DNA from: Fibrobacterota bacterium
GTDB taxonomy: Bacteria > Fibrobacterota > Fibrobacteria > UBA11236
Assembly: GCA_028287465.1 (NCBI GenBank)
Contig: JAQBPO010000064.1
Coordinates: 72,249-136,248 of the forward strand
Length of the DNA: 64,000 bases
Direction: 5' to 3'
Position 1 is the stretch's first letter; each line of letters starts with the position of its first letter. A program made the position numbers and the translations under genes. Below are positions 11,898 to 64,000 of this stretch, piece after piece. The notes under the pieces are model-generated. The model was not told the DNA's origin. It ran no database searches and was given only the letters and a program-made list of their open reading frames with translations.

Positions 11898-12313
11898 TCG
11901 CCGGGCCCGTCCCATCCGGCCGCGGCGGCGGGCAGTCCGGACTCACCCTGATGGAGATCATGATCGCCATCGTGGTCATCGCCATAGGCGTGGGCGTATT
12001 CGTCACCATGCAGAAGAACTCGGGCAGCAACCTGGCCGGGAACAGCAAGATGATGCGGGCGGGGCAGCTGGTGGAAAAGCACGTAGAGGCCATGCGGATC
12101 GGCATCGCGCGGGACACGGCGGGCAATTGGCCGCCCAACGACACCTCCTACACCGAAGCCGGGCTCAAGGTGGAGCGGAGGATCTCGCAGGCGGTATCGC
12201 CCAAGACCCTGACGGTCCTCTCCAATGTCCGCAAGGTGGATATCATCGTTTCCTGGGGCAAGTCGCACCAGGACAGCCTGGACGTAACGACCTATGTATC
12301 GCGCAGATTCTGA
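11894..12313 (+). CDS. pseudopilin (GspI/PilV-like), prepilin-type N-terminus
   Basis: GQSG|LTLMEIMIAIVVIAIGV with Glu at +5. It is translationally coupled to both neighbours. Confidence 0.55.
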   Translation: MIAGPVPSGRGGGQSGLTLMEIMIAIVVIAIGVGVFVTMQKNSGSNLAGNSKMMRAGQLVEKHVEAMRIGIARDTAGNWPPNDTSYTEAGLKVERRISQAVSPKTLTVLSNVRKVDIIVSWGKSHQDSLDVTTYVSRRF

Positions 12314-14931: not shown

Positions 14932-15954
14932 TCACTTCGCATTTTGACTTCTCCCGCCGAAGGCCGGAGAATCGGGACTGACGGCGGGCCTTCCCAGGAT
15001 CCCCCGGGCTTCCATCCATTTCGCGCATTGCGACGGCCAGGTGGACAGCTGCTCCATGCCCGGTTCCCCGTTCCGCTCCGCCGCCAGGCCGAAAGCATGG
15101 CCCCCCTGCACGAAGGCCAGGAACTCCACGGGTACCTTGGCCCGCCGCAACGCTTCCGCATAGGCCTGGCTGTTGGCGATGGCCACGACGGGATCGGCCT
15201 CGGCATGCACCAGGAAGGCCGGCGGCGCGCCCCCTTCGACCTGGGTTTCAAGGGACAAATAGGACAGGGTGGCGGCATCGGGCGAGCGCCCCAGCAGATT
15301 GATGCGCGAGGCGCGGTGGGTGAAGGGCGCCTCCATGGAGATGACCGGGTAGATCAGGATCTGGAAATCCGGACGGCAGGAAACGCGCTCGACCGGATCC
15401 GCCGCTGCCGGATCGCCTCCGTCATTGTGGGTCGCCACGGTCGCCGTCAGATGGCCGCCCGCGGAAAACCCCAGCATGCCTATCCGGCGGGGATCGAGAT
15501 GGAAGCGCGCGGCATTGGCCCGCACCCAGCGCACCGCCCTTTGCCCATCCTCCATCTGCGCGGGATGGTGGAACGCCGGTCCCAAGCGGTATTCGAGCAG
15601 GAAGGCATGGATCCCCAGGGACCGCAGCCACAGGGAGGGCTCCACCCCCTCCTTCTTGCGGGCGAGCATGCCATAGGCGCCGCCGGGGCATACCACCATG
15701 GCGGCTCCGTTGGCGGAGTCCCTGACGGGAGCGTATAGGGTGAGGAATGGCGCGGATCGGGCAGAATCCTTCCCGATGAAGGCCACCTGCGGCTCCTTGG
15801 ACGCGGCCGGATCGATGCGGATGCTCCGGGGCCGGGTGGCCCCGGCGCCGTGGGCCGAAAGGACGATGGCCAGGATTCCGGCGATGCCGGAAAGCGGCGG
15901 CCGGCGCAACGCCGGGATTCCGGCCCGCGCGGGGTAACGTCGGGGGGACGGCAC
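14932..15954 (-). CDS. secreted alpha/beta-hydrolase esterase, paralog 3
   Basis: Motifs PGGAY, GFSAGGHLTAT, HAEAD and HAFGL. It is convergent with the pilin operon. Confidence 0.6.
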   Translation of the reverse strand: MPSPRRYPARAGIPALRRPPLSGIAGILAIVLSAHGAGATRPRSIRIDPAASKEPQVAFIGKDSARSAPFLTLYAPVRDSANGAAMVVCPGGAYGMLARKKEGVEPSLWLRSLGIHAFLLEYRLGPAFHHPAQMEDGQRAVRWVRANAARFHLDPRRIGMLGFSAGGHLTATVATHNDGGDPAAADPVERVSCRPDFQILIYPVISMEAPFTHRASRINLLGRSPDAATLSYLSLETQVEGGAPPAFLVHAEADPVVAIANSQAYAEALRRAKVPVEFLAFVQGGHAFGLAAERNGEPGMEQLSTWPSQCAKWMEARGILGRPAVSPDSPAFGGRSQNAK

Positions 15955-27824: not shown

Positions 27825-30800
27825 TCACCCTCCCGCGATCGGGTCCTTTTCCCCGGCCGTTTCCCCGGCCGTTTCACCGGCCGTTTCACCGGCCAGGCCG
27901 ACCGCCTTGCCCGCATTGCCCGCGGGCTTTTCCTTATCCTTCCCGCCCGTGCCGTCCAGCACTTCCCGCACCTTGGCCGATAGGGCCGCCGGGCTGAAGG
28001 GCTTTCCGATGAAGGAGGCCTGCGCGGTATATACGCCGTGGCGGATGATGGCATCCTCGGTGTATCCCGACATGAACAATACCTTCACTTCGGGCCGGGT
28101 CGCCTTGAGCCGCTCCGCCAGCTCGCGTCCGCTCATCCCGCCCATCACCACGTCGGTCAGCAGCAAGTGGATGCCGGTGTCCCGGATCTTGGTCTCCAAC
28201 AGCTCCAGCGCCTGCTCACCGCCCGGGGCCTCGAAAACGGTATATCCTCCCACCTCGAGCACGTCGCGGACCAGACGCCGGACCGCATCCTCGTCTTCCA
28301 CCAGGAGGATGGTCTCGGTTCCGCCGGCGGAGCGCAGGGCGCGTTCCCGCATGCGCGATTTCTCCGGCTTCTCCTGCTTGGTCCCGGCCGGGAGGAAGAT
28401 CGAAAAGGTGGTGCCCTTCCCCGGCTCGGTCTCTACGCTGATGGATCCGTTCGACTGCTTGACCGCGCCGTAGACGGTCGACAGGCCGAGGCCCGTGCCC
28501 TTGTCCTTGGACTTGGTGGTGAAAAAGGGTTCGAACAGGCGCGAACGGGTCTCCGCATCCATGCCCGTCCCGTTGTCCGAAACGGTCAGCTGCGCGTACT
28601 CCCCGGGAGTCAATTCGAGGGTTGCCGGGGTGCGGGCCTCGTTCTTGAGATGGATGTTTTCGGTGGAAACCATGAGGTCGCCGCCGTTGGGAAGGGCGTC
28701 CCGCGCATTGAGGACCAGGTTGAGGATGACCTGTTCCATCTGGCTGGGGTCCGCGATCACCTTGGTCAGCTTGGGATCCAGGCGGGTCTGGAAGATGATG
28801 TTCTCGCCGATGAGGCGGCGCAGCATGGTTTCCATGCTCAGCACCACGGCGTTGAGATCGAGGACCCGGGGGGCCAGCACCTGCTTACGGCTGAAGGAGA
28901 GCAGCTGGCTCGTGAGGTCCGCCGCGCGCGCGCCGGCCTTGCGGATCTCCTCGATATGCGCGCGCTTGGGATCCTCCTTGGGCACGGTCATCAGGAGCAG
29001 ATCGCTGAAGCCGTTGATGGCGGTCAGCAGGTTGTTGAAATCATGGGCCACGCCCCCGGCGAGCCGCCCCACGGCCTCCATCTTCTGGGATTGGCGGAGC
29101 TTATCCTCGCTGGCCTTGAGCGCGTCCTCGGCCCGCTTCCGATCGTTGATATTCCGGACGATGCCCTCGAAATAGGCTACGCTCCCTCCCAGGCGCCGGA
29201 TGGGCTGGGCGTTCACTTCCACCCAAACCGGGACGGCCCTCTCGCGCTCCAGTTCCACCGAGAAGGTTTCGCCCTTGTCCGAGAAGGCGAGGGAATCCCC
29301 GCCCGCCGGCAGGAGGCGCGGCCGCACGGTTCCCACCAGTTGGCTGCGGTCCGAGTAACCCATCATGGCCACCAGGGCCGGATTGGCGTCCAGGACGGTC
29401 CCGTCCGGCGCGCAGCGGTAGATGCCGTCCAGGGAACGTTCGAACAGGGTGCGGTATTTCTCCTCGGAACGGCGCAGGTCCCGGTAAAGCAGCATGGCCC
29501 CGAGGGCCGTGGAGATGCGGGTGGAGATGTCCTTGAACATCGGGAATTCCTCGGCCCGCCAAGGCGCGGCGACCGGCCCGCGCAGGAGGCATAGGATCCA
29601 CGGACGGCCCACCTGGGGGCGCACCGAGATGGCTTTGATGGTACCGACGCGAAGGGAATCCCTCCAATACGGTTCGCCGGGGAGCGGCTGAACCCCTCCG
29701 AAGACCACGGGTTCGTCGCTGGCTTTGCAGGCCAACACGATTTCCTGGAAGCCGGCTTCCGCGGGCAGGGTCTCGATATCCGAGACGGCGAAAACCGGCT
29801 CGGCTTTGGCGGATCCCTTGCGCGGGCGCTCCGCCGAGAACTGGATGTGGAATCCCGTGGTTTCATCATCCGCGAGGTGGATGAGCCAGGCACGGTCGCA
29901 TGCGAATACGTCGAGCATCCTCGCCATGGCCGCAGGCAGGGCGCGCTCCACGTCCTGGGTACGTTCGATGGCGCCGGAAACCTGGTTCACGCCTTCCAGG
30001 TAACGCACGTGCTCGGCCGCGGAAACCTCCGCCCGCCGGACTTCCGAGATATCCTGCAGGACCGTGACCGCCAGATGGACCTTGCCTTGGCCGTCCAGGA
30101 TCGGCCTGGCGTTGACCACGACCCATCGCTCCATCCCCGTCTCCCGCGATCGGTAGCAAATCACCTCACCCTGTACGGTTTCGCCGAGCAGGGCGCGTCT
30201 CCCGGGAAGCCGTTCCTTGGGGTAGGGCTTCATGGATTCATCGAAGGTTTCATAGGGATGGAGAATCTTTTCGAAAGGCCGGTTGATGAGCTCTTCCGGG
30301 CGCGCGCAATCCAGCATCCGCGCGGCCGCGTCATTGGCGAAAACGGTAATGCCGGCCGTGTCGAAGGCGAATACGGGCGAATCCACCGTCTTGATGATGA
30401 TATCGAGCTCCAGGCGGGAAGGCAGGCCCGCCTCTTCCGTCGAGGGAACCGGTTCCGCGGATCCGCCGCGGGATCGACTTTCCTGGACAAGGTCGGCCAA
30501 GCTTCCAGCGAGGCTTTGGACCAATTCCCGCTCAGGCCCGGTCCAGTCCCTGGGTTCCGTGTCCCAGACCGCGAGAACCCCGAGGCATGACCCTTGCCCA
30601 TTCTTGACGGGAGCGCCGAGAAAGGCGCGCAGGCCTTCGGCGGGGAAACCGGAACCCGCTTGGTGCTTAGGCTTGGTCCCGCCTCCGTCCAGGGATTTCG
30701 ACAGGGGTCCCCCGAAAGCGGCATCCACCAGGAAGTCCCATTCCAGGGGCCATTCGGGCCGATCCATGAGTCCGGCCGGAAGGCCATGGAAACCCCTGGG

Positions 30801-30977
30801 AAGCAGGGATCTTTCCCCGAGCAGCAGGAACGCGGAGCTCGTGGCCCTTAGGCTCAGGGAAACCGTGCGGAGGAACCGATTGAGGGCTGGGGGAGGGTCG
30901 GATTCCGCCAAACCCGTCGCCGCCACGGCTCGCAATCGGGCTTCATCCGCCAGTCTGATCGGGTAATCCGGATGCAT
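27825..30977 (-). CDS. hybrid sensor histidine kinase / response regulator (GAF and PAS sensors, HisKA, HATPase_c, C-terminal receiver) with an (ETAG)n tail
   Basis: H-box QKMEAVGRLAGGVAHDFNNLLTAINGFSDLL. HATPase GTGMD...GTGLGLSTVYG. REC ILLVEDEDAVR...LLLTDVVMGGMSG...KVLFMSGY. Confidence 0.8.
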   Translation of the reverse strand: MHPDYPIRLADEARLRAVAATGLAESDPPPALNRFLRTVSLSLRATSSAFLLLGERSLLPRGFHGLPAGLMDRPEWPLEWDFLVDAAFGGPLSKSLDGGGTKPKHQAGSGFPAEGLRAFLGAPVKNGQGSCLGVLAVWDTEPRDWTGPERELVQSLAGSLADLVQESRSRGGSAEPVPSTEEAGLPSRLELDIIIKTVDSPVFAFDTAGITVFANDAAARMLDCARPEELINRPFEKILHPYETFDESMKPYPKERLPGRRALLGETVQGEVICYRSRETGMERWVVVNARPILDGQGKVHLAVTVLQDISEVRRAEVSAAEHVRYLEGVNQVSGAIERTQDVERALPAAMARMLDVFACDRAWLIHLADDETTGFHIQFSAERPRKGSAKAEPVFAVSDIETLPAEAGFQEIVLACKASDEPVVFGGVQPLPGEPYWRDSLRVGTIKAISVRPQVGRPWILCLLRGPVAAPWRAEEFPMFKDISTRISTALGAMLLYRDLRRSEEKYRTLFERSLDGIYRCAPDGTVLDANPALVAMMGYSDRSQLVGTVRPRLLPAGGDSLAFSDKGETFSVELERERAVPVWVEVNAQPIRRLGGSVAYFEGIVRNINDRKRAEDALKASEDKLRQSQKMEAVGRLAGGVAHDFNNLLTAINGFSDLLLMTVPKEDPKRAHIEEIRKAGARAADLTSQLLSFSRKQVLAPRVLDLNAVVLSMETMLRRLIGENIIFQTRLDPKLTKVIADPSQMEQVILNLVLNARDALPNGGDLMVSTENIHLKNEARTPATLELTPGEYAQLTVSDNGTGMDAETRSRLFEPFFTTKSKDKGTGLGLSTVYGAVKQSNGSISVETEPGKGTTFSIFLPAGTKQEKPEKSRMRERALRSAGGTETILLVEDEDAVRRLVRDVLEVGGYTVFEAPGGEQALELLETKIRDTGIHLLLTDVVMGGMSGRELAERLKATRPEVKVLFMSGYTEDAIIRHGVYTAQASFIGKPFSPAALSAKVREVLDGTGGKDKEKPAGNAGKAVGLAGETAGETAGETAGEKDPIAGG
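27851..27898 (+). repeat. 12-bp tandem repeat (ccggccgtttcc) x4 inside the 3' end of the kinase gene, in frame, encoding ETAG repeats
   Basis: ccccggccgttt ccccggccgttt caccggccgttt caccggcc. The protein tail is GETAGETAGETAGEKDPIAGG. Confidence 0.8.
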
Positions 30978-36922: not shown

Positions 36923-37035
36923 ACCGCAACCTTTCCCAAAAAACCAAAGCTTTTAGTCAGATCTTTGTCATATCATAAGGGTGATTGGGGGATTGGCGTC
37001 CCCTGGCCCGCCGCCCGGGTACGCCAGACAATCTT

Positions 37036-38862
37036 ATGGTGATCAGCCCTTCGCGAACCGTCCTTCGGCCCGTCCTTCTCACCGCCTTCTACCTGTTTTG
37101 CCCAAATCTCTTTTGCGCTAAACCCGCCGCGGCTGCCGAGGACTACGCCGCATGGCCCAACGCCACCGACGTCATCCTGAACACCTCCGCGACCGGCGCC
37201 GGCGTGGCCGGCACCGTCGCCAATTTCCCGGTGCTGGTACGGCTCACCTCCGCCAACTTCCCCTTTTCCCAGGCCGGCGGGAAAGGCCGGGACATCCGTT
37301 TCTCGAAACAGGATCGCACCCCGCTCGATTACGAGATCGAACGCTGGGACTCGACCCGCGCCCAGGCCGAGATCTGGGTCAGGCTGGACGAGGTGCGCGG
37401 GAACGCCGCGGGACAGATCGTGCGGATGTACTGGGGAAACCCGTCGGCCGCGGACAGTTCCGACGCGGCGGCCGTCTTCCGGGGGGCTGACGGCTATGTG
37501 GCCGCCTGGCACTTGGGGGTTCCCGGGACCGCGGCGCGCCCGAACGCGGTGGCGGGAGGCAATCCGGCGGCGCCCAACTCGTACGATGGGGACGAGAATT
37601 CCGCCGGCCTCATCGCCGGCGCGGACAGCCTGGACGGAACCGCTACCGGGGATTTCCTGGACATCGGCGACGGTTATACGGAGTTCACCGCCGGATTCAC
37701 CTATTCGGCCTGGGTCTATCCCACCGCCATGAAACGATGGTCGCACGTCCTCGACCTGGGGAACGGCACCGGCAACGACAACATCATCGTGAACCGGGTG
37801 GACACCACCGCGGCCATGGGATTCCACAATTGGACCGGGACCAACTCCTACGCCAAGGAGGTGCCCAACCAATGGGCGCTCAATCAATGGCAGTTCATCA
37901 CGGTCACCATGACGGGGAAGAACGTGCGCATGTACAAGAACGGCGCGCAAATCCTGGCGGACACCCTTCCCGGCGCCATGACCGGCGTGAACCGCACGAC
38001 CAACTACCTGGGCAAATCCAACTGGGCCGCGGACGATTTCTTCCAGGGCAAGCTGGACGAACCCGTTCTGGCCAAGACCGTGCGCAGCGCCGACTGGATC
38101 AAGCTGAGCTACCAGAACCAGCGCGCCGCCCAGACCCTGGTGACGGTGGTGAAGCCGGTGCAGTGCGCGGCCAGGATAAGCGTCCCCCCCGATACCACGG
38201 TGCCGGAAGGCGGTTCACTTACCCTGAACGCCGGCGTCGAATGCGCGGCGGGCTTCTCCTGGTCCGTGATCTCCGGGCCGGCGCCGCGCATCCTGGATCC
38301 GGAAACCAAATCCCTGGCCGTAGCGATCCCCCGCGTGGCCGCCGACACCGTCATCGTGTACCGCCTGACCGCGGAATTCTCCGACTCCACCAGGACCCGG
38401 GACGTGCGCGTGCGCATCAAGGAATCCATCCCGGATCCGATCTTCACCCTTCCCGCCATCCCATCCTGGAGCGGCAAGGAAGCGATTGCCTACCGGCCCG
38501 CCATCTCCAACCTGGCCGCCATCAAGGCCAGCCGGGATTCGGCGCTGCATTGGACGTGGAGTTTCGCCGGACCGGCCGTGGATACGTCCTGGCTGGAGGA
38601 CGGCATGACCTTGAAAAGCGCGGAGGGCGCGGGCGCATTGCAGATCGGGTTGTGCCTGGACAACGGCGGGCCGATCGTTTGCAGGAACGCCGCTTTGACC
38701 ATCACCGGTTCCGCGGCCTCCATGCTCCAGGCCCAATCGACTCCCCAAGGCCAAATAACCAAAACGGACCCCGGCCGTGACGCCCTCGGAAGGGCGGCGG
38801 ACGGGCCGATTACGCCTCGCAAGGCCGGCCGGCCGGGAATTGCGCGTTACCCCCGAAAATAA
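37036..38862 (+). CDS. secreted DUF2341 + LamG (concanavalin-A-like) protein, MshQ-like, with a shared C-terminal module; paralog A
   Basis: DUF2341-like FPVLVRLTSANFPFSQAGGKGRDIRFS...YEIERWD...AEIWVRL. LamG-like FTYSAWVYPTA...NQWQFITVTMTGKNVRMYKNGAQI...FQGKLDEP. Start placed at MVISPSRTVLRPVLLTAFYLFCP (signal peptide). Confidence 0.55.
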   Translation: MVISPSRTVLRPVLLTAFYLFCPNLFCAKPAAAAEDYAAWPNATDVILNTSATGAGVAGTVANFPVLVRLTSANFPFSQAGGKGRDIRFSKQDRTPLDYEIERWDSTRAQAEIWVRLDEVRGNAAGQIVRMYWGNPSAADSSDAAAVFRGADGYVAAWHLGVPGTAARPNAVAGGNPAAPNSYDGDENSAGLIAGADSLDGTATGDFLDIGDGYTEFTAGFTYSAWVYPTAMKRWSHVLDLGNGTGNDNIIVNRVDTTAAMGFHNWTGTNSYAKEVPNQWALNQWQFITVTMTGKNVRMYKNGAQILADTLPGAMTGVNRTTNYLGKSNWAADDFFQGKLDEPVLAKTVRSADWIKLSYQNQRAAQTLVTVVKPVQCAARISVPPDTTVPEGGSLTLNAGVECAAGFSWSVISGPAPRILDPETKSLAVAIPRVAADTVIVYRLTAEFSDSTRTRDVRVRIKESIPDPIFTLPAIPSWSGKEAIAYRPAISNLAAIKASRDSALHWTWSFAGPAVDTSWLEDGMTLKSAEGAGALQIGLCLDNGGPIVCRNAALTITGSAASMLQAQSTPQGQITKTDPGRDALGRAADGPITPRKAGRPGIARYPRK

Positions 38863-39006
38863 ATCCAGCCTCCGCCCAAGATCCTAAAACGATTTCCCGC
38901 CTCCGGGACGTATCGTATTGGCGGGGGGATGACGTTCCGGCTACCGCCGGGGCGGCGTCATCAAGATCACGTGGCAAACAACCTGGCTCGCGATTTCCGT
39001 CGTACC

Positions 39007-40833
39007 ATGCTCAACATCGGCTCCAAGGCCTTCCTTACGGCTTCGGCCCTGGGCGCCGTGGCCATGATGGCCGCCGCGGAAGCGGCGGAAAACTATTCCA
39101 CCTGGGGACGCGCCTCGGACCTCATCCTGGATACCTCGCCCGCGGGCGCGGACGTTCCCGGCCCCCTGAGCGACTTCCCCCTGCTGGTCCGGCTCAACGC
39201 GTCCAACTTCACCTTCGCCGAAGCGCGCGGCCGGGGCCAGGACATCCGCTTCTCCGATGCGGCCGGGTCGCCGCTCGACTACCAGATCGAGCGCTGGGAT
39301 TCCGCGCGGGCCCTCGCGGAGATCTGGGTCAGGATCCCCCTTGTCTCGGGCAATGCCGCCGGGCAGACCTACCATATGCATTGGGGCAAATCGACGGCCG
39401 CCGACAGTTCGGACGGGCGGGCGGTGTTTTCGAACCACCAGGTGGCGGTGTGGCACATGGGCGGGACCGGAGCCAACGCCCGCGCAAACTCCGCCCCAGG
39501 CGGCCAGGCGGCCCAACCGTACAATTACGAATCCGACAAATCCCGCGATGGCATCATCGCCAAGGCGGACACCCTGGACGGCCAGGATCCCGGCGATTAC
39601 CTGGACATCGGGGACGGATACCAGGACTTCTCCGGCGGCTTCAGCTTTTCCATCTGGGCCTACCCGACCGCCGTGAAGAACTACGCCCGCTTCTTCGAAT
39701 TGGGCAACGGCGAAAGCGCGGACAATATCATGCTCACGCGCGACGGGACATCCGACGACCTGCGATTCGACAATTACAATCCCGGGGCCACGGTAAGCAC
39801 GGTCAAAAGCGGCGCGGCCATCTCCCTGAACCAATGGCAGCAATTCGGCGTCAACGTCTCCACGTCCGGGCTCGCGAAGATCTACAAGAACGGCGCGGTC
39901 ATCGCGCAAGGACAGCTCACCAATACCGTAGCCAACGTCTGGCGCGCTTCCAACTTCCTGGGGAAATCGAATTGGACCTGGGACGCCTATTTCCAGGGCA
40001 TGCTGGACGAACCGGCGCTGAGCAATATCAGCCACAGCGACAACTGGTACAAGCTCTGCTACCAGAACCAGAGGCAGGCCCAGACCCTGGTCACGGTCAA
40101 GCGCCCCGCCCTCTGCCAATCCCGGTTCAAGGGGCAGGCCGACACGGCGGTGAATGAAGGAGCCACGGTGAATCTGACGGGCACGGCAGACTGCGCTACC
40201 GGGGTATCCTGGAGCGTCCTTTCCGGGCCCGCCCCGCGCATCCTCGATCCGGAAATGAAGGTCCTCACGGTCGCGATGCCCCGCGTTTCCGGGGAGACCG
40301 TCATCGTCTACCGGTTCGCCGCCGCCTACGCGGATTCCTCGCCCTACAAGGATGTCCGGGTGACCATACGGGAGACCGTCCCCGATCCCGATTTCACCAT
40401 GCCTCCGCTCACCGCATGGGACGGCAAGATCGCCGTGGCCTACCGGCCCGCCATCGCGAACCTTTCCGCCATCAAGGCTTCGGCGTCTCCCGTCATCCAT
40501 TGGGCCTGGACCTTGTCCGGCGTGGCCGCGGATACCGCCTGGCTCGCGGACGGACTCAACCTCAAGACCGCCGCGGCGGAAGGGCCCTTGCAGATAGGAT
40601 TGTGCCTGGACAATTCCGGTGCCCGCGTTTGCAAATCAGCCTCGATCACGGTCTCCCGCACCGCCGGCAGCACCTCGTCCTTGATCGATCGGACCGCCGC
40701 CTCGGCCAAGCGCCCGGGGGATCCCAGGGCGGACCGTGAATGGCGCGACGCATCCGGCCGTCTCCGGACCGGCGCCTACGGCGGCATCAACCCGGGCGGC
40801 CGCTTCGCAGGCAAATCCAGGCCAGCCCCATGA
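39007..40833 (+). CDS. secreted DUF2341 + LamG protein; paralog B of the upstream gene
   Basis: Same architecture and about 60% identity to paralog A (FPLLVRLNASNFTFAEARGRGQDIRFS...). Signal peptide MLNIGSKAFLTASALGAVAMMAAA. Confidence 0.55.
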   Translation: MLNIGSKAFLTASALGAVAMMAAAEAAENYSTWGRASDLILDTSPAGADVPGPLSDFPLLVRLNASNFTFAEARGRGQDIRFSDAAGSPLDYQIERWDSARALAEIWVRIPLVSGNAAGQTYHMHWGKSTAADSSDGRAVFSNHQVAVWHMGGTGANARANSAPGGQAAQPYNYESDKSRDGIIAKADTLDGQDPGDYLDIGDGYQDFSGGFSFSIWAYPTAVKNYARFFELGNGESADNIMLTRDGTSDDLRFDNYNPGATVSTVKSGAAISLNQWQQFGVNVSTSGLAKIYKNGAVIAQGQLTNTVANVWRASNFLGKSNWTWDAYFQGMLDEPALSNISHSDNWYKLCYQNQRQAQTLVTVKRPALCQSRFKGQADTAVNEGATVNLTGTADCATGVSWSVLSGPAPRILDPEMKVLTVAMPRVSGETVIVYRFAAAYADSSPYKDVRVTIRETVPDPDFTMPPLTAWDGKIAVAYRPAIANLSAIKASASPVIHWAWTLSGVAADTAWLADGLNLKTAAAEGPLQIGLCLDNSGARVCKSASITVSRTAGSTSSLIDRTAASAKRPGDPRADREWRDASGRLRTGAYGGINPGGRFAGKSRPAP

Positions 40834-47935: not shown

Positions 47936-49006
47936 TTAGCGGACTACGACCAGGCCGGAAGCGGAGGGGCCCTGGGAAGCCGTGCGCCAGTAGTAGACTC
48001 CGGGGGCCGCCGCATGGCCGGCCGCATCCAGGCGATCCCATTCCGCCGCGGCGGAGTTGCCGGCGCCCAAGGTCCTGACCAGGCGGCCGGAGCGATCGAA
48101 GATGGCGACGGGCGAAGCCTTGACGGCCGAGTTCAGGGCGACCCGGGGCTTGAGGCCCGCGGTAACCGGCGTCCCGATGGTCAGGTTGGTGGTGATGGTG
48201 CAGCTGGAGGAGGCGGTATGGCGTTCCGCGAAGAAGAAGTCGAAGGGATAGCTCTTGCCGCTTTCAAGCCCAAGGGCCCCCTTGAGGGAATCCAGGTTGA
48301 CGGTGGCGGTCTGCAGGGCATGCACGCCGCCCAGGTCGGCCACGCGCTTCCCGTTCAGGAACAGCCAGATATCGTCGTCGCCGGAAATGGTGACCAACTG
48401 GCCCTGTCCTTCCGTATAGGTGAAGTTGGTGTGCAACTCCATGGTGAACCCGTAATCGTGCTGGGACAGGTCGACGCCGTCCACGGTTCCGGTCTGGAGA
48501 TGCCCGAACGTTCCTTCCGCCGGATTCACCTTGGTGAAGGTGTTGCCGTTATCGATGGGGAAGAAGGTCTTGTCGCCGAAGGTATAGGCGCCCTTGGCTT
48601 CGTCCCAGTCGAAGCGCATGTCGACGAGGAAAGCGCGATTGATCCCCGGCTTGTCGGAGAACCAATCGGAGAAGCGATCGACGGGGGAATAGCACTTGGC
48701 CAAACTCGAGGGCAGGGAGTCCACGAGCTTGGGGTTCCGGTTGTCGCCGACGAAGGCGCCTCCGTCCGCGGGCCCGTTCACGTCCAGATCGGGCTGCACG
48801 GTATTGACGCCGAGCTCCTGGGCGCTGCAGCCGTTCCCGTTGTTGAAATGGGGATGCGCCCCGGCGGTATCGCTCGGGCTGATCTCCTTGAAGTCGCGGA
48901 CCTTGGCCGTGACCGAGACGGCATTATGGGTTTGCGCCGAGACGGCGGCAACGCAGCAGAACAGGGCGCAGAAGGTCGGTACCATTGAAGGCATGTTTGT
49001 TTTCAT
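47936..49006 (-). CDS. secreted fibro-slime domain protein with a T9SS-type C-terminal sorting domain
   Basis: Signal peptide. ISGDDDIWLFLNGKRVADLGGVH...YPFDFFFAERH. CTD VAIFDRSGRLVRTL...WDRLDAAGHAAAPGVYYWRTAS. Confidence 0.65.
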   Translation of the reverse strand: MKTNMPSMVPTFCALFCCVAAVSAQTHNAVSVTAKVRDFKEISPSDTAGAHPHFNNGNGCSAQELGVNTVQPDLDVNGPADGGAFVGDNRNPKLVDSLPSSLAKCYSPVDRFSDWFSDKPGINRAFLVDMRFDWDEAKGAYTFGDKTFFPIDNGNTFTKVNPAEGTFGHLQTGTVDGVDLSQHDYGFTMELHTNFTYTEGQGQLVTISGDDDIWLFLNGKRVADLGGVHALQTATVNLDSLKGALGLESGKSYPFDFFFAERHTASSSCTITTNLTIGTPVTAGLKPRVALNSAVKASPVAIFDRSGRLVRTLGAGNSAAAEWDRLDAAGHAAAPGVYYWRTASQGPSASGLVVVR

Positions 49007-54326: not shown

Positions 54327-55103
54327 GTGGATATAACAACAATCATGGGCCCGGTCGTCGCCATCGGCATGATCCTGCTCGGGATGATCCTGGAAGGCGG
54401 GCATGTCCAGTCCCTGATCCAGCTGACGGCCTTCATGATCGTGGGAGGCGGCACGGCCGGAGCCATCCTCGCCAGCTTCCCCCTGGACCATACCGTCCAG
54501 GCCTTGAAGGCGCTCAAGATCTGCATCATCCCCCCCAAGTCGGATCACGAAAAGGTCATCGCCGAGCTGACCGAACTCTGCCAGTTCGCGCGCAAGAACG
54601 GCATCATGGCCCTCGAAGGCAAGGCCAAGGCGCACCCGGACGCGTTCACGCGCAAGGGATTGTCGCTCGTGGTGGACGGCATCGATCCCGCCATGCTCCT
54701 GAGCATCATGGAAACCGAGCTGGAGACTTTCGAAGAGCACGCCAAGATCCCCATCCCCGTCATGGAAGGCGGCGGCGCCTACGCGCCCACCGTCGGCATC
54801 ATCGGCGCCGTGCTCGGCCTTATCCACGTGATGTCCAATCTGGACGATCCTTCCAAGCTGGGAGGCGGCATCGCCACCGCCTTCGTGGCCACGATCTACG
54901 GCTTGACCATCGCGAACGTCATCGCCCTGCCCCTCGCCTCCAAATACAAGATCCGCGTGGCCCAGATGGTCCACGAGAAGAACATGATCCTGCAGGGCCT
55001 GGTGGCCCTCCAGAACGGCGAGAACCCCCATTTCCTGAGCCAACGCCTCCGGGCCTTCCTCCCCGGCGGCGGGCATGGGGCCAAAGAGGGCGCGGCGCAC
55101 TGA
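54327..55103 (+). CDS. motA: flagellar-motor-type stator protein MotA/PomA (MotA/TolQ/ExbB proton-channel family)
   Basis: 258 aa with 4 TM. N-terminus MDITTIMGPVVAIGMILLGMILEGG. C-terminal TM pair GAYAPTVGIIGAVLGLIHVM...ATAFVATIYGLTIANVIALPLA. Confidence 0.7.
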   Translation: MDITTIMGPVVAIGMILLGMILEGGHVQSLIQLTAFMIVGGGTAGAILASFPLDHTVQALKALKICIIPPKSDHEKVIAELTELCQFARKNGIMALEGKAKAHPDAFTRKGLSLVVDGIDPAMLLSIMETELETFEEHAKIPIPVMEGGGAYAPTVGIIGAVLGLIHVMSNLDDPSKLGGGIATAFVATIYGLTIANVIALPLASKYKIRVAQMVHEKNMILQGLVALQNGENPHFLSQRLRAFLPGGGHGAKEGAAH

Positions 55104-55130
55104 GCGCGCCCGTCCCGAACATTCAAGCAC

Positions 55131-55931
55131 ATGGCCAGGAAGCACAAACACCCGGAACACGTCAACCACGAACGTTGGCTCGTCTCCTACGCGGATTTCA
55201 TCACCCTTCTCTTCGCCACCTTCACGGCGCTCTACGCGCTCAGCAAGGCGGACGCGAACAAGGCCAAGGTCGTGGCCGATGGCCTGCGCGAGGCCTTCGG
55301 CGTCAGCGGCGCCAAGATGGTCAATATGGAGGCCCTGGACGTCAACGGCATCCCATCGGACAAATCCCGCCTTCCCAAAGGCGAAGGCAACGAGAACAAG
55401 ACCGAGCCTTCCACCAAGGAGGCCGGCAAGCAGGAGTTCGAGGAAATCAAGAAGGCGGTCGAGGAGTTCCTCATGACCAAGGGCATGCTCAACAAGGTCT
55501 CAATCGATCAGCAGGAACGTGGCCTGGTGGTCAGCCTGAAGGAAGCGGGATTCTTCGAATCGGGGAACGCGGACGTGAAGGACGGTGCCCTGCCCATTCT
55601 GGCGGAGCTGGCCGAGAAGATCAAGCAGTACCGGAATCCCGTCCGCATCGAGGGCCATACCGACAATGTCCCCATGAGCTCGCGGACCTATCCCACCAAT
55701 TGGGAGCTGTCCTCCGCGCGCGCGACCAACATGGCCCGGGTGCTTACGGACCGGTTCAAGGTGCCGCCGGGCAAGATGTCCGCCACCGGCTACGGGGAGT
55801 TCCGGCCCAAGACCTCCAACGACACCCCCGCGGGCCGCGCCCGCAACCGCCGCGTCGATATCGTGATCCTGTCCGGCAAGGCCGAGGAATCCGAGCCCGA
55901 GACAATCATGGACGATAATGGGGGTGTCTGA
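55131..55931 (+). CDS. motB: MotB-like stator protein with an OmpA-like peptidoglycan-binding domain
   Basis: N-terminal WLVSYADFITLLFATF TM. OmpA-like RIEGHTDNVP...ELSSARATNMARVL...RNRRVDIVIL. Confidence 0.7.
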   Translation: MARKHKHPEHVNHERWLVSYADFITLLFATFTALYALSKADANKAKVVADGLREAFGVSGAKMVNMEALDVNGIPSDKSRLPKGEGNENKTEPSTKEAGKQEFEEIKKAVEEFLMTKGMLNKVSIDQQERGLVVSLKEAGFFESGNADVKDGALPILAELAEKIKQYRNPVRIEGHTDNVPMSSRTYPTNWELSSARATNMARVLTDRFKVPPGKMSATGYGEFRPKTSNDTPAGRARNRRVDIVILSGKAEESEPETIMDDNGGV

Positions 55932-57638: not shown

Positions 57639-60600
57639 CTAAGGCAGTATTTCCAGGCGCGCGTTTTGATTCGCGAGGGCGCGCAGGGCGGGACCGGGGA
57701 GCTCCGAGGATTCCCCCGCATGCCCCCGGCCTTCCCATAGGAGCCTTCCCTGCCAGGTCCAGACGCGGGCCCTGCCGGGCCGGTTCCACAACAGGCGTCC
57801 CCCGTTCATGGCGATCGCGCCCATGGACCCGCCGCGGCCGGCCAGCCGCGCGGACAACCGGGAAATCGCCACCTGGGTGGCCGCGCAGGAAACGGCGCCG
57901 CCATTGTCCAGGCACAGGGTGACTTCCAGGATGCCGTCCTGCGCGGGACGGCTCAATACGAGGGAGTCGGAGGATTGGGCCGTATCGGCGATGTTTACGG
58001 ACAGGAACCATTGGTAGCGGAAGGCCGGCGAGTAGGGTGAGGCCTTGAGCTCGATCGCATTGGTCAGCTCCGGCCTGAGAGCGAGAGGCGCGTCCCCGTT
58101 CCATTTGGGTTTGGCGGGCAAAATGAACTTCGGATCCGGAATCGAGTTGCGGACGCGGACCGTCACGTCCTTGGATTCCTCGTTCGTTCCGTAGACCGCG
58201 GTGAACCGGTAGACCATCACCGTATCCCTGGACACGCGCGGCGCGGTGATGATGAGGGATTCCACTTCCGGATCCAGGATTTTCGGCGCGGGGCCGGAGA
58301 CGACGGACCAGGAGAAGCCTTGCGAGCAGGCGGCCTTGCCTTTCAGGAGGGCGGGCTGGCCCTCGTCCACCGTCAGGGTTTCCGGCAAGGCCTGGAAAAC
58401 GCTGTCGCAGACGGTCACGGTGAGCTTGGCATCGCGGCTGGTATCGGCCCCATACGCATTGCTGACGATGACGGTGAAGATCGCGCCGTCGTCGGAGAGC
58501 TTGGCCGTGTCCAGGGCGAAGGTGGAGTCGGTGGAGAGGATGGTCGCGCTCCCCCTGCGCCGCCATTTGAAGGCCACGGGTTGGGCGCCGATGGCCCCCA
58601 CGGTGAATACGGCTTTCTTCCCCTTGCCCACGAAGATGTCCGCGGGTTCCCGGGTGATAAGGGCCCCTTGCACCACGGTGAGCTTGGCTTCCCGGGTGGC
58701 CGCCTGGCCGTAGGCGTTGATCACGGTGCATGAATAGAGGGACGCGTTATCGCCCATAACGGTAGCTCCCAGGGCGAGGGTGGAATCCCGGGAGACCACG
58801 GTGGTATCCCCTTTCCTGCGCCATTGATACTCAAGGGCGCCGCTACCGGCGGCCCCGACGCTGAAGGAAGCCTTCTGTCCGGCCACGACGGCCGTGTCCC
58901 TGGGTTCGCGGGTCACTACGGCCGGCCGGTTCACTTTCAGGGCCGCATTGAAGGAGGTATCGCTGCCATAGGAATTGGCGACGATGCAGAAGTACGACGC
59001 GCCGCTGTCCGCCGGGGCGACTGAGGCCAAGGCCAGCACGGAATCCCCCGCGAGGAACCCGGGCGTCCCCGCCTTTTGCCACTGGTATCCCAAGGGACCG
59101 GAGCCGATCGCGCGCACCCTGAACGCGGCGGGTTTACCGGCGAGCACGGAAGTATCCTGCGGCTCCAGGGTGATGACCGGGATGACGCCTACGGTAAGCT
59201 TGGCCTCGCGCGTCAATGCCTGCCCGTAATCGTTGATCACGGTGCATTGGAAAAGGGCTCCGCTATCGCTCAACGCGGGCAAGGCCAGGACGTATTCGGC
59301 GGCCGTGGAAATCACCGCCGCATCCCCTTTGCGGCGCCATTCGTACTTGAGGGTGCCGCTTCCCGCGGCCGTAACCGTGAAGCGCGCCTCGCGGCCCGTC
59401 GCCACCTTAACGTCCAGGGGCTGCACGGTTATGGTCGGGATGGTGTTGACCGTCAGGACGGCTTCGGGCGAGGTGTCCGTGCCGTAAGGATTGGAAACGA
59501 TGCAATACCACGAGGTGCCGTTCTGGGAGGCCAGGACCGGATTGAAGGTCAAGGTCGATCCGGAAGCGACGGTGGCGGTATCGCCTTTCCTCTTCCATTT
59601 ATAGGCGAGGGGAGCGCTTCCCTTGGCCGAAACGGTGAAGGTGGCCACGGAGCCGGCCAAGAAGGATGCGCTTACGGGCCCCGCGGTGATCTTGGCGGGA
59701 TCGTTCACGTTGAGCTTCGCGTCTCCGGATTCGGTGGCGCCGTTCGCATTGGTGACGGCGCAATAGTAGAGCGCCCCGCTGTCGGAAGCCGCGGCCGAAG
59801 CGATGGTGAAGACGGCGTCGGTTGAAAGGACCGTCGCGTCCGGGCGTTTACGCCAGGCAAAGGCCAAGGTGGGCGCGCCCGTTGCGGCCACGGTGAACTC
59901 CGCCTTCGCCCCGGTCGAAACCGTAACGTCCTTGGGTTGGACGGTGATGGAAGGAGGGGCGAAAACCCAGCGGGAGTTGCCGGAACCGTTTGTGCAGTTG
60001 GACGCGGCCTTCCCGTCCTGGGCGCCGGTTACCGCGCTCTTGGCGATGGCCGCGAAATCCGCGTCCAGGGTCCCGCCGGCATGGATGGTCCAGGCCGAGC
60101 CGGGATTGAGGTTGAGCAGGTTGCCGGACTGCCCCGTCAGGGCGATGTTGCCGTCCGCGCCCAGGTCCCGGCCGCCCAGGTTCGCGAAGGTGGACGCGTT
60201 TCCGTTCGTAACCGTGAGGTTACCGGAGACGTTCACGTTGTTGCCGGCCAGGTTCAGGGTTCCCGCCGATTGGGCCAGGGATTTCCCGACCAGGGGCGCC
60301 CCCAGGCTGAGGGTTCCGGTTCCGGGATGCCGTACGTTGCCGATGGACCCGCCGGTGACGCTCAAGGTCTGGCTCGCCGGGGAGGCCGCGGCCATATCCA
60401 GGTTGGAATTGTCCGCGGAGCCGGAATTCTGGAGGGACAGGGTCACGTTCCCCTTGGCCGTCCAGGTACCGTTCCCCATCAGCAATTGCTGGGTGGGCGT
60501 TCCCGCCGATCCGTTGGCCGCCCGGAGGATGTCCCCGTCCGCGGCGACATTGGTGTTGTTGGCCCGGAAATCCAGGATACCCTGCAATCCCGAGGATCCC

Positions 60601-62072
60601 AGTTCATCCCGCAGGATGAGGGCGCCCTTGACCTGGAGGGTTCCGGGCGCCGTGGTGATCCGGGCCGGGAAGGTGGACCCGATCGCCCAAAGGTACAGGT
60701 TGGGAAAGGCCGCGTTCCCGGGCGTGAAGACCAGATTCTTGCCGGCGCCGGCGGTGCTTTGGCTCCGGATCTGGACATTGCCCGTCGCGGGCATGGCGGT
60801 GACGCCGGAGAAATTCGCATCGCCCTTTACGATCAGGGTATCCCCGGTGCCCAATGCCCGGAAAGCGCCGCCGCTGGCGGAGAGTCCGGCGAACTCATTG
60901 GTCCGGCTGCCCAGGTCGAACATACCGCCGGTCATGGTCAGGACCCCGGCCACCAAGGGCCGGTTGGTAATCTGGACCGTACCGTTCCCGGATTTGGATA
61001 TCGCCGGATGGATCGCGCCCGGCAGCGGGGAGAACAATTGCGTCGCCGAGGCCGAATTGAAGGCCAGGGTGCCGGTACCGGCATTGAGGGTGGCGGTCGT
61101 CCCGAAGTCGGCGTTTCCGGAAAGGGTCAGGGTGGAGGTCCCGAAGGAGAAGGCGCCGGTGTAGCCGTTCATGTCCAGGCTTTGCGCCGAAAGGTTGGCC
61201 GTCAGCAGGGCATTGGATTGGGCCGTGCTTGTGATGCCGCTGAAGGACATGTCCATATTGGCTGCGGTGATGTTCCCGTTCGCCTGGAAGTCGTCGAAGA
61301 CGACCGTGGTCGAAACCCCAAGATTATGGGAGGTTGCGAAAAGGCCGATCTGGGAATTGGCCGCCGCGCTCTGGGGCGAGCCGAATCCCAGAAGGGTCCA
61401 GGGAGCGTTCTGGGATGTCTTATAATACCCGTAGAAGACTCCGCCCTTCCTCGCGGCCCGGAGCCAGACGGGAAAGACCGGGACCAACGGAGCGACGCCT
61501 GGCCCGCCCGGGCTTTCGAACTCGCCTTGGGTACCGGTGGAATCGAACTGGATCTTGATGCCGTTCTGCGGGGTTACGACCACGGCGAAGCATCCACCGG
61601 CCGTCGGGTTGCCGAATTCGTCGTATATCAGGATGCCGGCCTTGGCCCATTCGTAGGAATTGCTCTGGGAGACCACCTGCACGGAAACGTCGAAGTTACC
61701 CGTGATGTCATCGCGCCAGACGGCCGTATACTGGTTGTCGGCGAACCAGATATCGTTACCCCTGCCGGTCAGGGTGAGCTTGTCGGCGGCGGCGGTCAGG
61801 CTGAAGGAACCGGTGGTCCCGTCATTGTCATTGTCGCGGAACTTCCAATTGGCATTGAGCGCATCGCTGGTGAAGTCGTCGTCAAAGCCGGACTTGGGCC
61901 AGGCGCCCCCGCCGTTACTGTATTGGGACCAGTTCCCGCTTTTTTGGACCTCGCCACCGCCGTTCAGCAGGTGCACGGAGGGATTCCAGAAGAAATTCTC
62001 GGCCCGCGCCGCGCCGCCCAGGACGAGGGCGAACAGGATCAGGCGCGAAAGGACGCGGCCCTTGGATCCCAT
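57639..62072 (-). CDS. giant secreted adhesin: concanavalin-like N-terminal domain, beta-helical passenger-type repeats, 6 tandem Ig (I-set-like) domains, and the shared C-terminal module plus tail
   Basis: Signal peptide MGSKGRVLSRLILFALVLGGAARA. Beta-helix repeats are of the GTGTLAFNSASA / GTLNLAGNNVNVSGNLTV type. Six 86-aa repeats with F.V.A.G..PL.Y.W.(R/K)KG...............SD.G.Y.C.V.N.G...S..A.L.V. The C-terminus matches the DUF2341-LamG proteins. Confidence 0.65.
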   Translation of the reverse strand: MGSKGRVLSRLILFALVLGGAARAENFFWNPSVHLLNGGGEVQKSGNWSQYSNGGGAWPKSGFDDDFTSDALNANWKFRDNDNDGTTGSFSLTAAADKLTLTGRGNDIWFADNQYTAVWRDDITGNFDVSVQVVSQSNSYEWAKAGILIYDEFGNPTAGGCFAVVVTPQNGIKIQFDSTGTQGEFESPGGPGVAPLVPVFPVWLRAARKGGVFYGYYKTSQNAPWTLLGFGSPQSAAANSQIGLFATSHNLGVSTTVVFDDFQANGNITAANMDMSFSGITSTAQSNALLTANLSAQSLDMNGYTGAFSFGTSTLTLSGNADFGTTATLNAGTGTLAFNSASATQLFSPLPGAIHPAISKSGNGTVQITNRPLVAGVLTMTGGMFDLGSRTNEFAGLSASGGAFRALGTGDTLIVKGDANFSGVTAMPATGNVQIRSQSTAGAGKNLVFTPGNAAFPNLYLWAIGSTFPARITTAPGTLQVKGALILRDELGSSGLQGILDFRANNTNVAADGDILRAANGSAGTPTQQLLMGNGTWTAKGNVTLSLQNSGSADNSNLDMAAASPASQTLSVTGGSIGNVRHPGTGTLSLGAPLVGKSLAQSAGTLNLAGNNVNVSGNLTVTNGNASTFANLGGRDLGADGNIALTGQSGNLLNLNPGSAWTIHAGGTLDADFAAIAKSAVTGAQDGKAASNCTNGSGNSRWVFAPPSITVQPKDVTVSTGAKAEFTVAATGAPTLAFAWRKRPDATVLSTDAVFTIASAAASDSGALYYCAVTNANGATESGDAKLNVNDPAKITAGPVSASFLAGSVATFTVSAKGSAPLAYKWKRKGDTATVASGSTLTFNPVLASQNGTSWYCIVSNPYGTDTSPEAVLTVNTIPTITVQPLDVKVATGREARFTVTAAGSGTLKYEWRRKGDAAVISTAAEYVLALPALSDSGALFQCTVINDYGQALTREAKLTVGVIPVITLEPQDTSVLAGKPAAFRVRAIGSGPLGYQWQKAGTPGFLAGDSVLALASVAPADSGASYFCIVANSYGSDTSFNAALKVNRPAVVTREPRDTAVVAGQKASFSVGAAGSGALEYQWRRKGDTTVVSRDSTLALGATVMGDNASLYSCTVINAYGQAATREAKLTVVQGALITREPADIFVGKGKKAVFTVGAIGAQPVAFKWRRRGSATILSTDSTFALDTAKLSDDGAIFTVIVSNAYGADTSRDAKLTVTVCDSVFQALPETLTVDEGQPALLKGKAACSQGFSWSVVSGPAPKILDPEVESLIITAPRVSRDTVMVYRFTAVYGTNEESKDVTVRVRNSIPDPKFILPAKPKWNGDAPLALRPELTNAIELKASPYSPAFRYQWFLSVNIADTAQSSDSLVLSRPAQDGILEVTLCLDNGGAVSCAATQVAISRLSARLAGRGGSMGAIAMNGGRLLWNRPGRARVWTWQGRLLWEGRGHAGESSELPGPALRALANQNARLEILP
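58517..60062 (-). repeat. six diverged tandem coding repeats of about 258 bp (Ig-like domains) inside the giant adhesin gene
   Basis: Periodic protein repeat seen in the translation. Boundaries are approximate (about +-30 nt). Confidence 0.6.
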
Positions 62073-62390
62073 GATATGATTATGGACAAACCGGAAAACC
62101 ACATGAACGAACATGCCACCACTCCAAATCCCCCTCGCTCAAGTCTTCTCCGCTGGGCGGGCCTAGTCCGAAGGCGCTTTGGATCCGCTCAGGCCCGAGA
62201 ACCGCGTCTCCCATTCCCGGGGAGGCCGCAATCCACGCATCCGCACCCCGTGTCCCCCAACCACTAACCGCGGGATCCGGAGCGAATGCGCCGCCAAATA
62301 ATAGTTATGGTATGGTTGGAGCGTATCGATCAGGCTGGATGAAAATTTGCCCCCGGATGGAACGAAAACCTAAAATCCTATATTAGCGGA

Positions 62391-63421: not shown

Positions 63422-64000
63422 CTAGCGGCCCGTTTTGACCGCGAGGAAATCCAGGCGCGCAGCCCCCATGCGCAGGGAGCGCTCCGCGCCCGCGGGCAAT
63501 TGCGCCGATGAACCGGGAGCGCCCCAGGTCTGCCACAGGATCCTGCCGCGCCAGTCCATGACCCGCGCCAGCCCGGGCCTGTTCCATCCGAGCCGGTTCC
63601 CGTCAAGCCAGACCGGACCCGAATGCGTCCTGCCCAGGAGCAGGGACAGGGAAATGCGCTTGACCTCCACCACGGCCTTGGAGCAGGACGGCGCGCCGCC
63701 ATTGTCCACGCACAGGGAGATCTCGATGTTGCCGTCCTCCTGCGCCTCATGCAGCACCAGGGAATCCCCCGCTACGCTGGAATCCGCGATGTAGGGATTG
63801 ACCGCCCACAGGTAACGCAGGGGATACTTGGGGAACTTCGCGAGCTCGGCCGCGTTCGCGATCTTGGGGCGGATGACCTTCTTGCCTTCGCCGTTCCAGG
63901 ACGGCAGGACGGGCAAGGCGACCGAAGGATCGGGAATGGTGTCCTTCACCTTGACGGTCACGTTCTTGGACTCCCAGTTGCCGCCGAACAGGGCCGAGAA
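63422..64000 (-). CDS. 3' part of a secreted surface protein carrying the same C-terminal module and sorting-type tail as the giant adhesin; 5' end lies beyond the window
   Basis: The frame stays open to nt 64000. ...VTVKVKDTIPDPSVALPVLPSWNGEGK...NIEISLCVDNGGAPSCSKAV...LGWNRPGLARVMDWRGRILW is parallel to the C-terminus of 57639..62072. Confidence 0.6.
   Translation of the reverse strand, partial: FSALFGGNWESKNVTVKVKDTIPDPSVALPVLPSWNGEGKKVIRPKIANAAELAKFPKYPLRYLWAVNPYIADSSVAGDSLVLHEAQEDGNIEISLCVDNGGAPSCSKAVVEVKRISLSLLLGRTHSGPVWLDGNRLGWNRPGLARVMDWRGRILWQTWGAPGSSAQLPAGAERSLRMGAARLDFLAVKTGR

Follow-up and report, generated by a model that had tools for sequence, protein, structure and literature searches.

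What is the role of a C-terminal sequence of some 230 amino acids (aa) that recurs in several putative surface proteins encoded near one another in a Fibrobacterota genome? The question is raised by a 64,000-nucleotide stretch of DNA (hereafter the window, to which all coordinates refer; GC content ~64%) from the assembly GCA_028287465.1 of a Fibrobacterota bacterium (contig JAQBPO010000064.1, positions 72,249 to 136,248 of the forward strand), in which four genes, here called A to D, share this sequence at their 3′ ends. An initial annotation, made from the nucleotide sequence alone, had suggested a lineage-specific sorting or anchoring domain that might correspond to TIGR02145. Here, we describe the sequence as a composite cassette of two tandem immunoglobulin (Ig)-like domains, D1 and D2, followed by a very basic tail that is either long (TL) or short (TS). 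The reading that we favour, with little more than even confidence, is that D1-D2 form an Ig-like stalk and that the basic tail acts as a C-terminal type IX secretion system (T9SS) signal.

A cassette shared by four genes

When the last 257 aa of the gene C open reading frame (ORF; window 57639-58412, minus strand) were searched against the window by tblastn, three other places were recovered and no more, namely 63443-64000 on the minus strand (47% identity, E 3e-49), 40111-40659 on the plus strand (45%, E 1e-46), and 38179-38778 on the plus strand (40%, E 9e-45), the next best match having an E value of 0.065. In local alignments, the D1-D2 cores of the four proteins are 32-55% identical in pairs, with z scores of 28-83 against 200 shuffles, which places their identity well above background, and a MAFFT alignment of the four C-termini returned the initially described pattern almost residue for residue (CA.G.SWSV.SGPAP[RK]ILDPE, VYR[FL], IPDP.F, W.G, RP.I.N, W.W, DT, and LC.DNGG...C), in which two Cys pairs are conserved. 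The further tail L.WNRPG.ARV..W.GR.LW...G.S..LP is likewise present, among the four, only in gene C and the partial gene D, as had been noted. Copies no more alike than this leave no room for recent duplication or gene conversion as the cause of the likeness, and the four are old paralogues. The features of the four genes are as follows, with the D1, D2, and TL boundaries set by local hidden Markov models (HMMs) built for each domain.

36985..38862, plus strand: gene A, secreted DUF2341-LamG protein with the cassette, 625 aa
38161..38424, plus strand: A-D1, probable diverged K319L-like PKD (Ig-like) domain; local D1 HMM E 1.6e-43
38425..38706, plus strand: A-D2, lineage-specific Ig-like domain (IPDP..., W.G, RP, W.W, LCLDNGGxxxC); local D2 HMM E 7e-40
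38707..38862, plus strand: short basic tail (TS) of A, isoelectric point (pI) 11.4; motif R-DALGR-A at 38779-38793
38929..40833, plus strand: gene B, DUF2341-LamG paralog, 634 aa; 51% identity to A over 589 aa
40111..40374, plus strand: B-D1, PKD-like domain; local HMM E 9.5e-45
40375..40656, plus strand: B-D2, Ig-like domain; local HMM E 9e-40
40657..40833, plus strand: short basic tail (TS) of B, pI 11.65; motif R-DASGR-L at 40747-40761
57639..62114, minus strand: gene C, adhesin-like protein, 1491 aa
58146..58412, minus strand: C-D1, PKD-like domain; local HMM E 1e-43; AlphaFold2 (AF2) pLDDT >90
57861..58145, minus strand: C-D2, Ig-like domain; local HMM E 2.7e-43; AF2 strands at module residues 110-183
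57639..57860 (HMM 57642-57860), minus strand: long basic tail (TL) of C with stop codon, 73 aa, pI 12.0; local TL HMM E 1e-34
63422-64000, minus strand: gene D, partial, leaving the window; from translation
63941..64000, minus strand: last 20 residues of the D1 of gene D, the rest lying beyond the window; from translation and alignment
63659..63940, minus strand: D-D2, Ig-like domain; local HMM E 1.2e-39
63422..63658 (HMM 63440-63658), minus strand: long basic tail (TL) of D with a 5-aa extension and stop codon, pI 12.0; TL HMM E 3.7e-35

Genes A and B both encode DUF2341 (PF10102; E 7.5e-15 and 55.6 bits in A, 51.3 bits in B) and Laminin_G_3 (PF13385; E 4.7e-21 and 75.9 bits in A, 59.9 bits in B), all above the Pfam gathering scores. 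The probable start of gene A, whose GC content at third codon positions (GC3) is 0.84, is the ATG at aa 18 (MVISPS...), after which a signal-peptide-like N-terminus follows. Gene C is built in the order signal peptide, ConA-like domain, β-helix (PATR-like), tandem I-set/Ig_3 domains, D1, D2, and TL; Pfam reports Ig_3 and I-set (E 1e-40, five matched stretches), a weak GH43_C2, and K319L-like_PKD at residues 1248-1321, and its relative P0012 bears the source name 'autotransporter-associated beta strand protein'. The N-termini of A, B, and C resemble Sec signal peptides when judged by eye. Where four different architectures had been counted, there are thus two, together with one partial gene whose N-terminus lies beyond the window.

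D1 and D2 as tandem Ig-like domains

An AF2 model of the module, built from a 10-sequence alignment, has a mean pLDDT of 88 and comprises three β-rich units, D1 (residues 1-88), D2 (90-183), and a mini-domain (200-256), with a short helical linker between the last two. The model takes the form of tandem Ig-like β-sandwiches, matching titin-type tandem Ig structures in Foldseek. The D1 profile aligns with the PKD repeats of giant proteins at an hhalign probability of 98.5% (E 2e-15), and since these repeats are themselves scored by Pfam as PF22352 (up to 859 bits), D1 is best regarded, on sequence grounds, as a diverged K319L-like PKD domain. It agrees with the K319L-like PKD (PF22352) and PKD_4 (PF18911) families in fold and in the W-x-(x)-SGP, 'DP', and P-x-V motifs, which stand in equal register. 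It differs from them in having its own Cys pair and in not forming arrays, one copy being fused to D2, and its scores with PF22352 are low: against a gathering score of 27 bits, isolated D1 reaches 17 bits in gene C and 21.8 bits in the relative P0001, whereas the whole gene C protein reaches 30.1 bits in sum, with no single stretch above the cut-off.

D2 is an unannotated and more derived Ig-like domain with weak PKD-like character. Its alignment with the PKD repeats has an hhalign P value of 3e-4 and a probability of 40%, with its C-terminal 57-61 columns alone aligned, and the D2 of P0001 contains one sub-threshold PF22352 stretch; beyond such sub-threshold PF22352 stretches, and TIGR04183 and T9SS type C on the TL of one relative, isolated D2, TL, and TS have no Pfam or NCBIfam match at E<=10. 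In a sequence search of the PDB with the module profile, only D1 was matched, to Ig-like repeats of phage tail proteins and to CRTAM, and D2 had no relative there. D2 bears the invariant motif LCxDNGGxxxC and a set of invariant residues of exposed type (W104, R113, W135, D143, D149, D169, and N170), follows D1 in every case, and never occurs without D1 in this data set. The ~185-aa core therefore maps to ubiquitous Ig-like domains, an outcome that the initial annotation had named as counting against it.

Relatives and domain architectures

A k-mer-limited search gave six relatives only (P0001-P0006), all unannotated and one of them from a 'Fibrobacteria bacterium' metagenome-assembled genome (MAG). 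Close relatives are all named 'hypothetical protein', without a Pfam match on the module region. A pattern scan of species-representative genomes, based on a 6-sequence alignment, found 12 loci, every one from six Fibrobacterota MAGs, and an exhaustive profile search of 1.84 billion representatives yielded 1332 proteins at E<=1e-3, 126 of them at E<=1e-30. As proposed at the outset, the module is lineage-restricted among its close relatives, and it is unannotated; one internal D1-D2 pair belongs to a Verrucomicrobiota protein.

The best hits of the profile search, together with P0001-P0006, were classified with separate D1, D2, and TL HMMs. D1-D2-TL is present in 35 proteins, in all 35 of which TL ends 0-22 aa from the C-terminus, and in another 47 proteins D1-D2 is followed by a short tail of 41-61 aa (TS). 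Many giant proteins carry arrays of D1 alone, in which the local D1 HMM counts 4-19 copies and the full-profile search as many as 42 matched stretches in one protein; Pfam calls these arrays K319L-like_PKD and PKD_4. Among the 25 TL carriers scanned with Pfam, 18 are Ig_3/I-set adhesins like gene C and 4-5 are DUF2341/LamG proteins; in a second scanned set of 24, made up of carriers of the short tail, P0114, and three proteins that extend further at the C-terminus, Laminin_G_3 is present in every member and DUF2341 in 19. As a C-terminal cassette, D1-D2 plus tail is accordingly limited to two architectures, DUF2341-LamG and the ConA-like/β-helix/I-set-Ig adhesins.

The pair also occurs away from C-termini. 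In P0138, it directly follows the signal peptide and stands N-terminal to a GH29 α-L-fucosidase; in P0103, it precedes a SASA esterase whose own end is a T9SS-like C-terminal domain (CTD); and in some proteins 1000-2400 aa long, of which one bears the annotation of a Verrucomicrobiota DUF2341 protein, it lies mid-protein. Because several internal pairs begin at about residue 350-380, right behind LamG, the ancestral unit would seem to be DUF2341-LamG-D1-D2, from which the adhesins of this Fibrobacterota clade apparently took over D1-D2 along with their tail.

In the closest genome relative, Fibrobacteres bacterium RYN_348, contig JAQBPN010000008.1 carries a TL-type cassette (65% identity) and a TS-type D1-D2 (47%) some 20 kb apart, mirroring the spacing of A/B and C in the window, which suggests conserved synteny of the two cassette types.

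Three interchangeable endings after D2

Proteins of the DUF2341-LamG-D1-D2 family end in one of three ways: with TS, which is commonest; with TL (P0072, P0090, P0092, and P0147); or with a canonical T9SS-like/FlgD_ig CTD (P0087, P0102, P0105, and P0114), for example "...ITILDVNGTPVRILPV...GVYVVRV...RKVVMN". The tail classes are interchangeable at a single position.

In the window, the tails have lengths of 51-78 aa and a pI of 11.4-12, whereas the mature parts have a pI of 5.1-5.9. TL, which is 50% identical between C and D, was predicted by AF2 on its own to form a mini β-sandwich of six strands and one helix, with a pLDDT of 87-96 for residues 21-80. TS is a roughly 50-aa tail consisting of a disordered linker, a linear motif, and then about 20 basic residues. 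Across 49 short tails, 47 of which are representatives clustered at 50% identity, the motif [RYFW]-[DN]-[AVL]-x-G-R-[RL] is found in 38, and most of the others carry shortened xDGR variants. After the motif comes a median of 20 residues, among which R, P, A, and G abound; their net charge averages +3.3, and one aromatic residue usually lies close to the end. The overall composition of TS is 16.5% R, 14.6% P, 11.6% A, and 11.4% G.

The motif also exceeds expectation in the window as a whole, where [DN]xxGR occurs six times within the last 45 aa of the encoded proteins, as opposed to an expectation of 1.3. The ends ...FDLLGRLRRG... and ...IDAAGRQR* belong to two secreted acetylesterase-like proteins; these are the first two of three paralogous BD-FAE/pectin-acetylesterase-like α/β hydrolases, encoded at 8898-10004, 10091-11278, and 14932-15954 on the minus strand. 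The DxxGR of these esterase tails is the motif of the TS of the LamG proteins and of the short basic terminal domains of Fibrobacter succinogenes.

Comparison of the tails with known export signals

The phylum Fibrobacterota possesses a T9SS (PMC9170169, PMC11205867). A basic terminal domain (BTD/FPm-1) is found on many of the enzymes that F. succinogenes secretes (PMC6851124); it was proposed as a T9SS signal by Raut et al. (2019), who reported an overlap with TIGR04183 and no BTD peptides in mature proteins (PMC6851124). The supplement of that study includes short BTDs ending in ...RFDLKGHRIK, ...RFDLKGNHLK, and ...AYDFKGRIIK, as well as long FPm-1 tails of the form ...VFDMQGRFLG...GIYMVK...RVAVK (PMC6851124). 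Functional short T9SS CTDs of 43-55 aa, with three strands and with motifs B, D, and E kept, have been described in Prevotella intermedia (PMC11969387).

Both TS and TL fall within the definition of a BTD, that is, a C-terminal region of ~45-90 aa with a pI >9 on a secreted protein of Fibrobacterota. Like BTD/FPm-1, they come in two length classes (~45 and ~70-90 aa), and they share with it a D-x-x-G-[RK] strand (RFDLKGHR, YDFKGR, and VFDMQGR compared with RDALGR, RDASGR, TWQGR, and DWRGR here). There are also differences. TL has a helix and is without the terminal GxYxV...K strands of FPm-1, the short BTD of F. succinogenes stops right after the motif, whereas TS runs on for about 20 residues and has only the DxxGR motif in common with RFDLKGHRIK and YDFKGRIIK, and the tails described here follow a D1-D2 stalk on lectin- or adhesin-type proteins, whereas BTDs are found on glycoside hydrolases.

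With the type A CTDs of the T9SS (TIGR04183/PF18962; FlgD_ig-like), TL agrees in location at the extreme C-terminus, size (73-78 aa), basic charge (pI 12), and a β-sandwich with a central ...D..GR.L strand, and it occupies a position equivalent to that of canonical CTDs in orthologous DUF2341-LamG-D1-D2 proteins. Its profile and fold similarity to them is weak. Type A CTDs form a seven-stranded 3+4 sandwich as opposed to the six strands plus helix predicted for TL; a W/D-x-x-G-R resembling motif B (loop Gly) is invariant in TL, whereas motifs D (GxY) and E (terminal K/R) are not evident, the last strand reading A-R-L-E-I rather than being K-rich; and TS is too short for a sandwich. The order of catalytic domain, IgSF domain, and CTD in the gingipain RgpB parallels that of an Ig-like domain before the tail.

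TIGR04183 and PF18962 gave no match on the window tails at the cut-off of 23 bits, which leaves these outside the curated families. The TL of P0119 scored 16.8 bits with TIGR04183 (E 0.005) against the same cut-off and also drew a sub-threshold T9SS type C match. Compared with a set of CTDs from F. succinogenes and the window, TL gave a weak hhalign P value of 0.002 over 41 columns, while FPm-1, as the positive control, reached a probability of 92.5% with the same set; TL against FPm-1 gave a marginal P value of 0.009, the 17 aligned columns having the DxxG[RK] strand at their centre. These direct comparisons of TL with T9SS CTDs are all weak and point in the same direction, none being significant alone. 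A profile search with 29 TL tails in a 5.8-billion-protein k-mer database had no match at E<=0.01, and as known TL carriers were also unrecovered, that search is uninformative.

The only candidate for T9SS-like machinery in the window is an outer-membrane β-barrel-like protein of 375 aa at 6848-7975 on the plus strand, which is sub-threshold PorV_fam/BamG-like (BamG E 3e-4, PorV/PorQ E 1e-3). It adjoins a 700-aa protein at 4749-6851 on the plus strand with one weak sub-threshold TPR_2 match and C-terminal acidic repeats of the DNDGDGWIDED type. Should this barrel prove to be PorV-like, that would be of relevance to the T9SS hypothesis.

Weighing the explanations

That the whole ~230-aa module, D1-D2 core included, serves in sorting or anchoring as a domain specific to the lineage and related to TIGR02145 has been largely refuted and now seems highly improbable. 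The module does lie near the C-terminus in all four window genes, its close relatives are confined to Fibrobacterota, and its size is like that of TIGR02145, about 175-200 aa (PMC4704652). However, TIGR02145 (Fib_succ_major, FISUMP) had no match in any of the four proteins (NCBIfam, E<=0.1), so that only approximate size and phylum are held in common and the two are different domains. Furthermore, D1 appears to be a generic PKD repeat that also fills the long arrays of unrelated giant proteins, and the canonical T9SS-like CTDs that come after D1-D2 in P0087, P0102, P0105, P0114, and P0103 would be redundant if the pair were itself a signal. Because D1-D2 is internal or N-terminal elsewhere, as before the GH29 fucosidase and in the 1000-2400-aa proteins (one of Verrucomicrobiota), and can precede a canonical T9SS-like CTD, it is unlikely to be a sorting element, and any sorting information would lie in the tails. 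The sorting or anchoring role first proposed for the module is thus plausible for the end of the cassette and not for its core; if there is a sorting function, its seat is most likely the very basic tails.

Whether those tails serve as specific signals can be weighed against two other possibilities. D1-D2 may act mainly in binding carbohydrate or cell-surface ligands, with the basic tails as electrostatic anchors to lipopolysaccharide, the outer membrane, or outer-membrane vesicles, in line with the older idea of the BTD; this we consider unlikely. The attachment of D1-D2 to lectin-like LamG, to a GH29 fucosidase, and to a SASA esterase, the many invariant D2 residues of exposed type, and a tail pI of ~12 would accord with it, but PKD/Ig tandems before C-terminal signals are a common spacer design, bona fide T9SS-type CTDs can take the place of the tails in orthologous architectures, the conserved DxxGR points to specific recognition beyond charge, and BTD peptides were lacking from mature proteins in F. 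succinogenes proteomics (PMC6851124). It is very doubtful, on the other hand, that the TS of the LamG paralogs is non-functional, as a degenerate remnant or an out-of-frame readthrough of a lost TL or CTD. Its low-complexity R/P/G/A-rich composition in a 65% GC genome and a GC3 that falls from 0.86 to 0.70 once the tail of gene A begins might be read in that way, whereas GC3 is still highest in the ORF frame (0.70 in A, 0.82 in B), none of the other frames downstream of A or B yielded a TL-like match by tblastn within the window, the motif keeps its distance from the C-terminus in 38 of 49 tails, and the same motif ends the unrelated esterases of the window and enzymes of F. succinogenes. An origin of TS as a frameshift or readthrough artefact is discounted in view of the frame-specific GC3 together with the conservation of the motif.

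The tail replacement, the basicity, the resemblance to BTDs, and the weak profile and fold similarity to T9SS CTDs are the grounds on which we favour, by a modest degree of belief, the reading of the cassette as an Ig-like stalk with a T9SS-type signal. The strongest argument is that three endings interchange at one position, from which we infer that TL and TS may be functional equivalents of the T9SS CTD, in versions proper to Fibrobacterota that would be counterparts of BTD/FPm-1. The repeat itself, the anatomy of its domains, the PKD homology of D1, and the classes, interchangeability, and basicity of the tails are shown directly, whereas secretion by a T9SS, cleavage, and anchoring are inferred. 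According to this scheme, the precursor would be exported by Sec to the periplasm; at the outer membrane, a PorV-type shuttle and a SprA-type translocon would recognise the tail, which would then probably be cut off within the low-complexity linker that follows D2. What is left, an acidic mature protein (pI 5-6), would be displayed on the cell surface or released from it. D1 and D2 (~185 aa), as two disulfide-containing Ig-like β-sandwiches, would serve as an extracellular stalk or spacer, possibly with ligand-binding capacity, and as a membrane-proximal stalk would project either the lectin-like head formed by LamG or the Ig/β-helix adhesin.

A bolder version, which we put forward tentatively and think less probable than not by some distance, is that TL and TS represent two classes of T9SS or T9SS-like export signal that are specific to Fibrobacterota and as yet undescribed. 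In that case, TS would be an essentially linear signal of ~25-30 residues, with R-D-A-x-G-R-R before a basic end that contains an aromatic residue; the short CTDs of Prevotella, at 43-55 aa, are longer. D2 would be a new Ig-like adaptor that co-evolved with the signals. If so, the minimal requirement of PorV/SprA would be a single motif-B strand.

Implications

For the most part, the design is an ordinary one: Ig-like spacers before C-terminal export signals are well known, and what is new are the unannotated D2, TL, and TS variants. Even so, 'hypothetical proteins' that number in the hundreds in metagenomes of uncultured high-GC Fibrobacterota, along with some DUF2341 proteins of other phyla, contain an unrecognised di-domain of PKD and Ig-like units, and two unmodelled types of basic tail mark probable surface or secreted proteins. 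Profile models of D2, TL, and TS would improve secretome prediction in Fibrobacterota, where polymer degradation relies on cell-surface proteins. Additionally, if TS is a working T9SS signal, it would help to define the minimal element recognised by the T9SS.

Other features of the window

Three fibro-slime proteins had initially been described as ending in T9SS-type CTDs. This is borne out for the fibro-slime (TIGR02148) and PA14 protein at 47936-49006 on the minus strand, which ends in a FlgD_ig-type CTD (PF13860, 28.8 bits). The protein at 16574-18361 on the minus strand, also with fibro-slime (TIGR02148) and PA14, has an end that is CTD-like by eye (LKLAVFDNLGQFV...GVYIMR), with no profile match at E<=0.01. 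The PA14 and fibro-slime protein at 13094-14851 on the plus strand lacks a CTD at its C-terminus, and its hydrophobic N-terminus is pilin-like. Directly upstream of it, two proteins with prepilin N-methylation motifs are encoded at 11376-11897 and 12294-13097 on the plus strand, and the region 11376-14851 may constitute a cluster of minor pilins and a tip adhesin.

Motility- and chemotaxis-type genes are also present in this Fibrobacterota window. They include MotA/MotB stator proteins (54327-55931, plus strand), a FapA-family protein (1457-3490, minus strand), and a left-edge ORF whose C-terminus resembles a histidine-kinase ATPase by eye (123-1433, plus strand). Fibrobacterota were long thought to be non-motile (PMC4704652). 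Finally, a protein of ~1050 aa at 27825-30977 on the minus strand, hybrid sensor histidine kinase-like by eye, ends in a tandem GETAGETAGETAGE peptide repeat.

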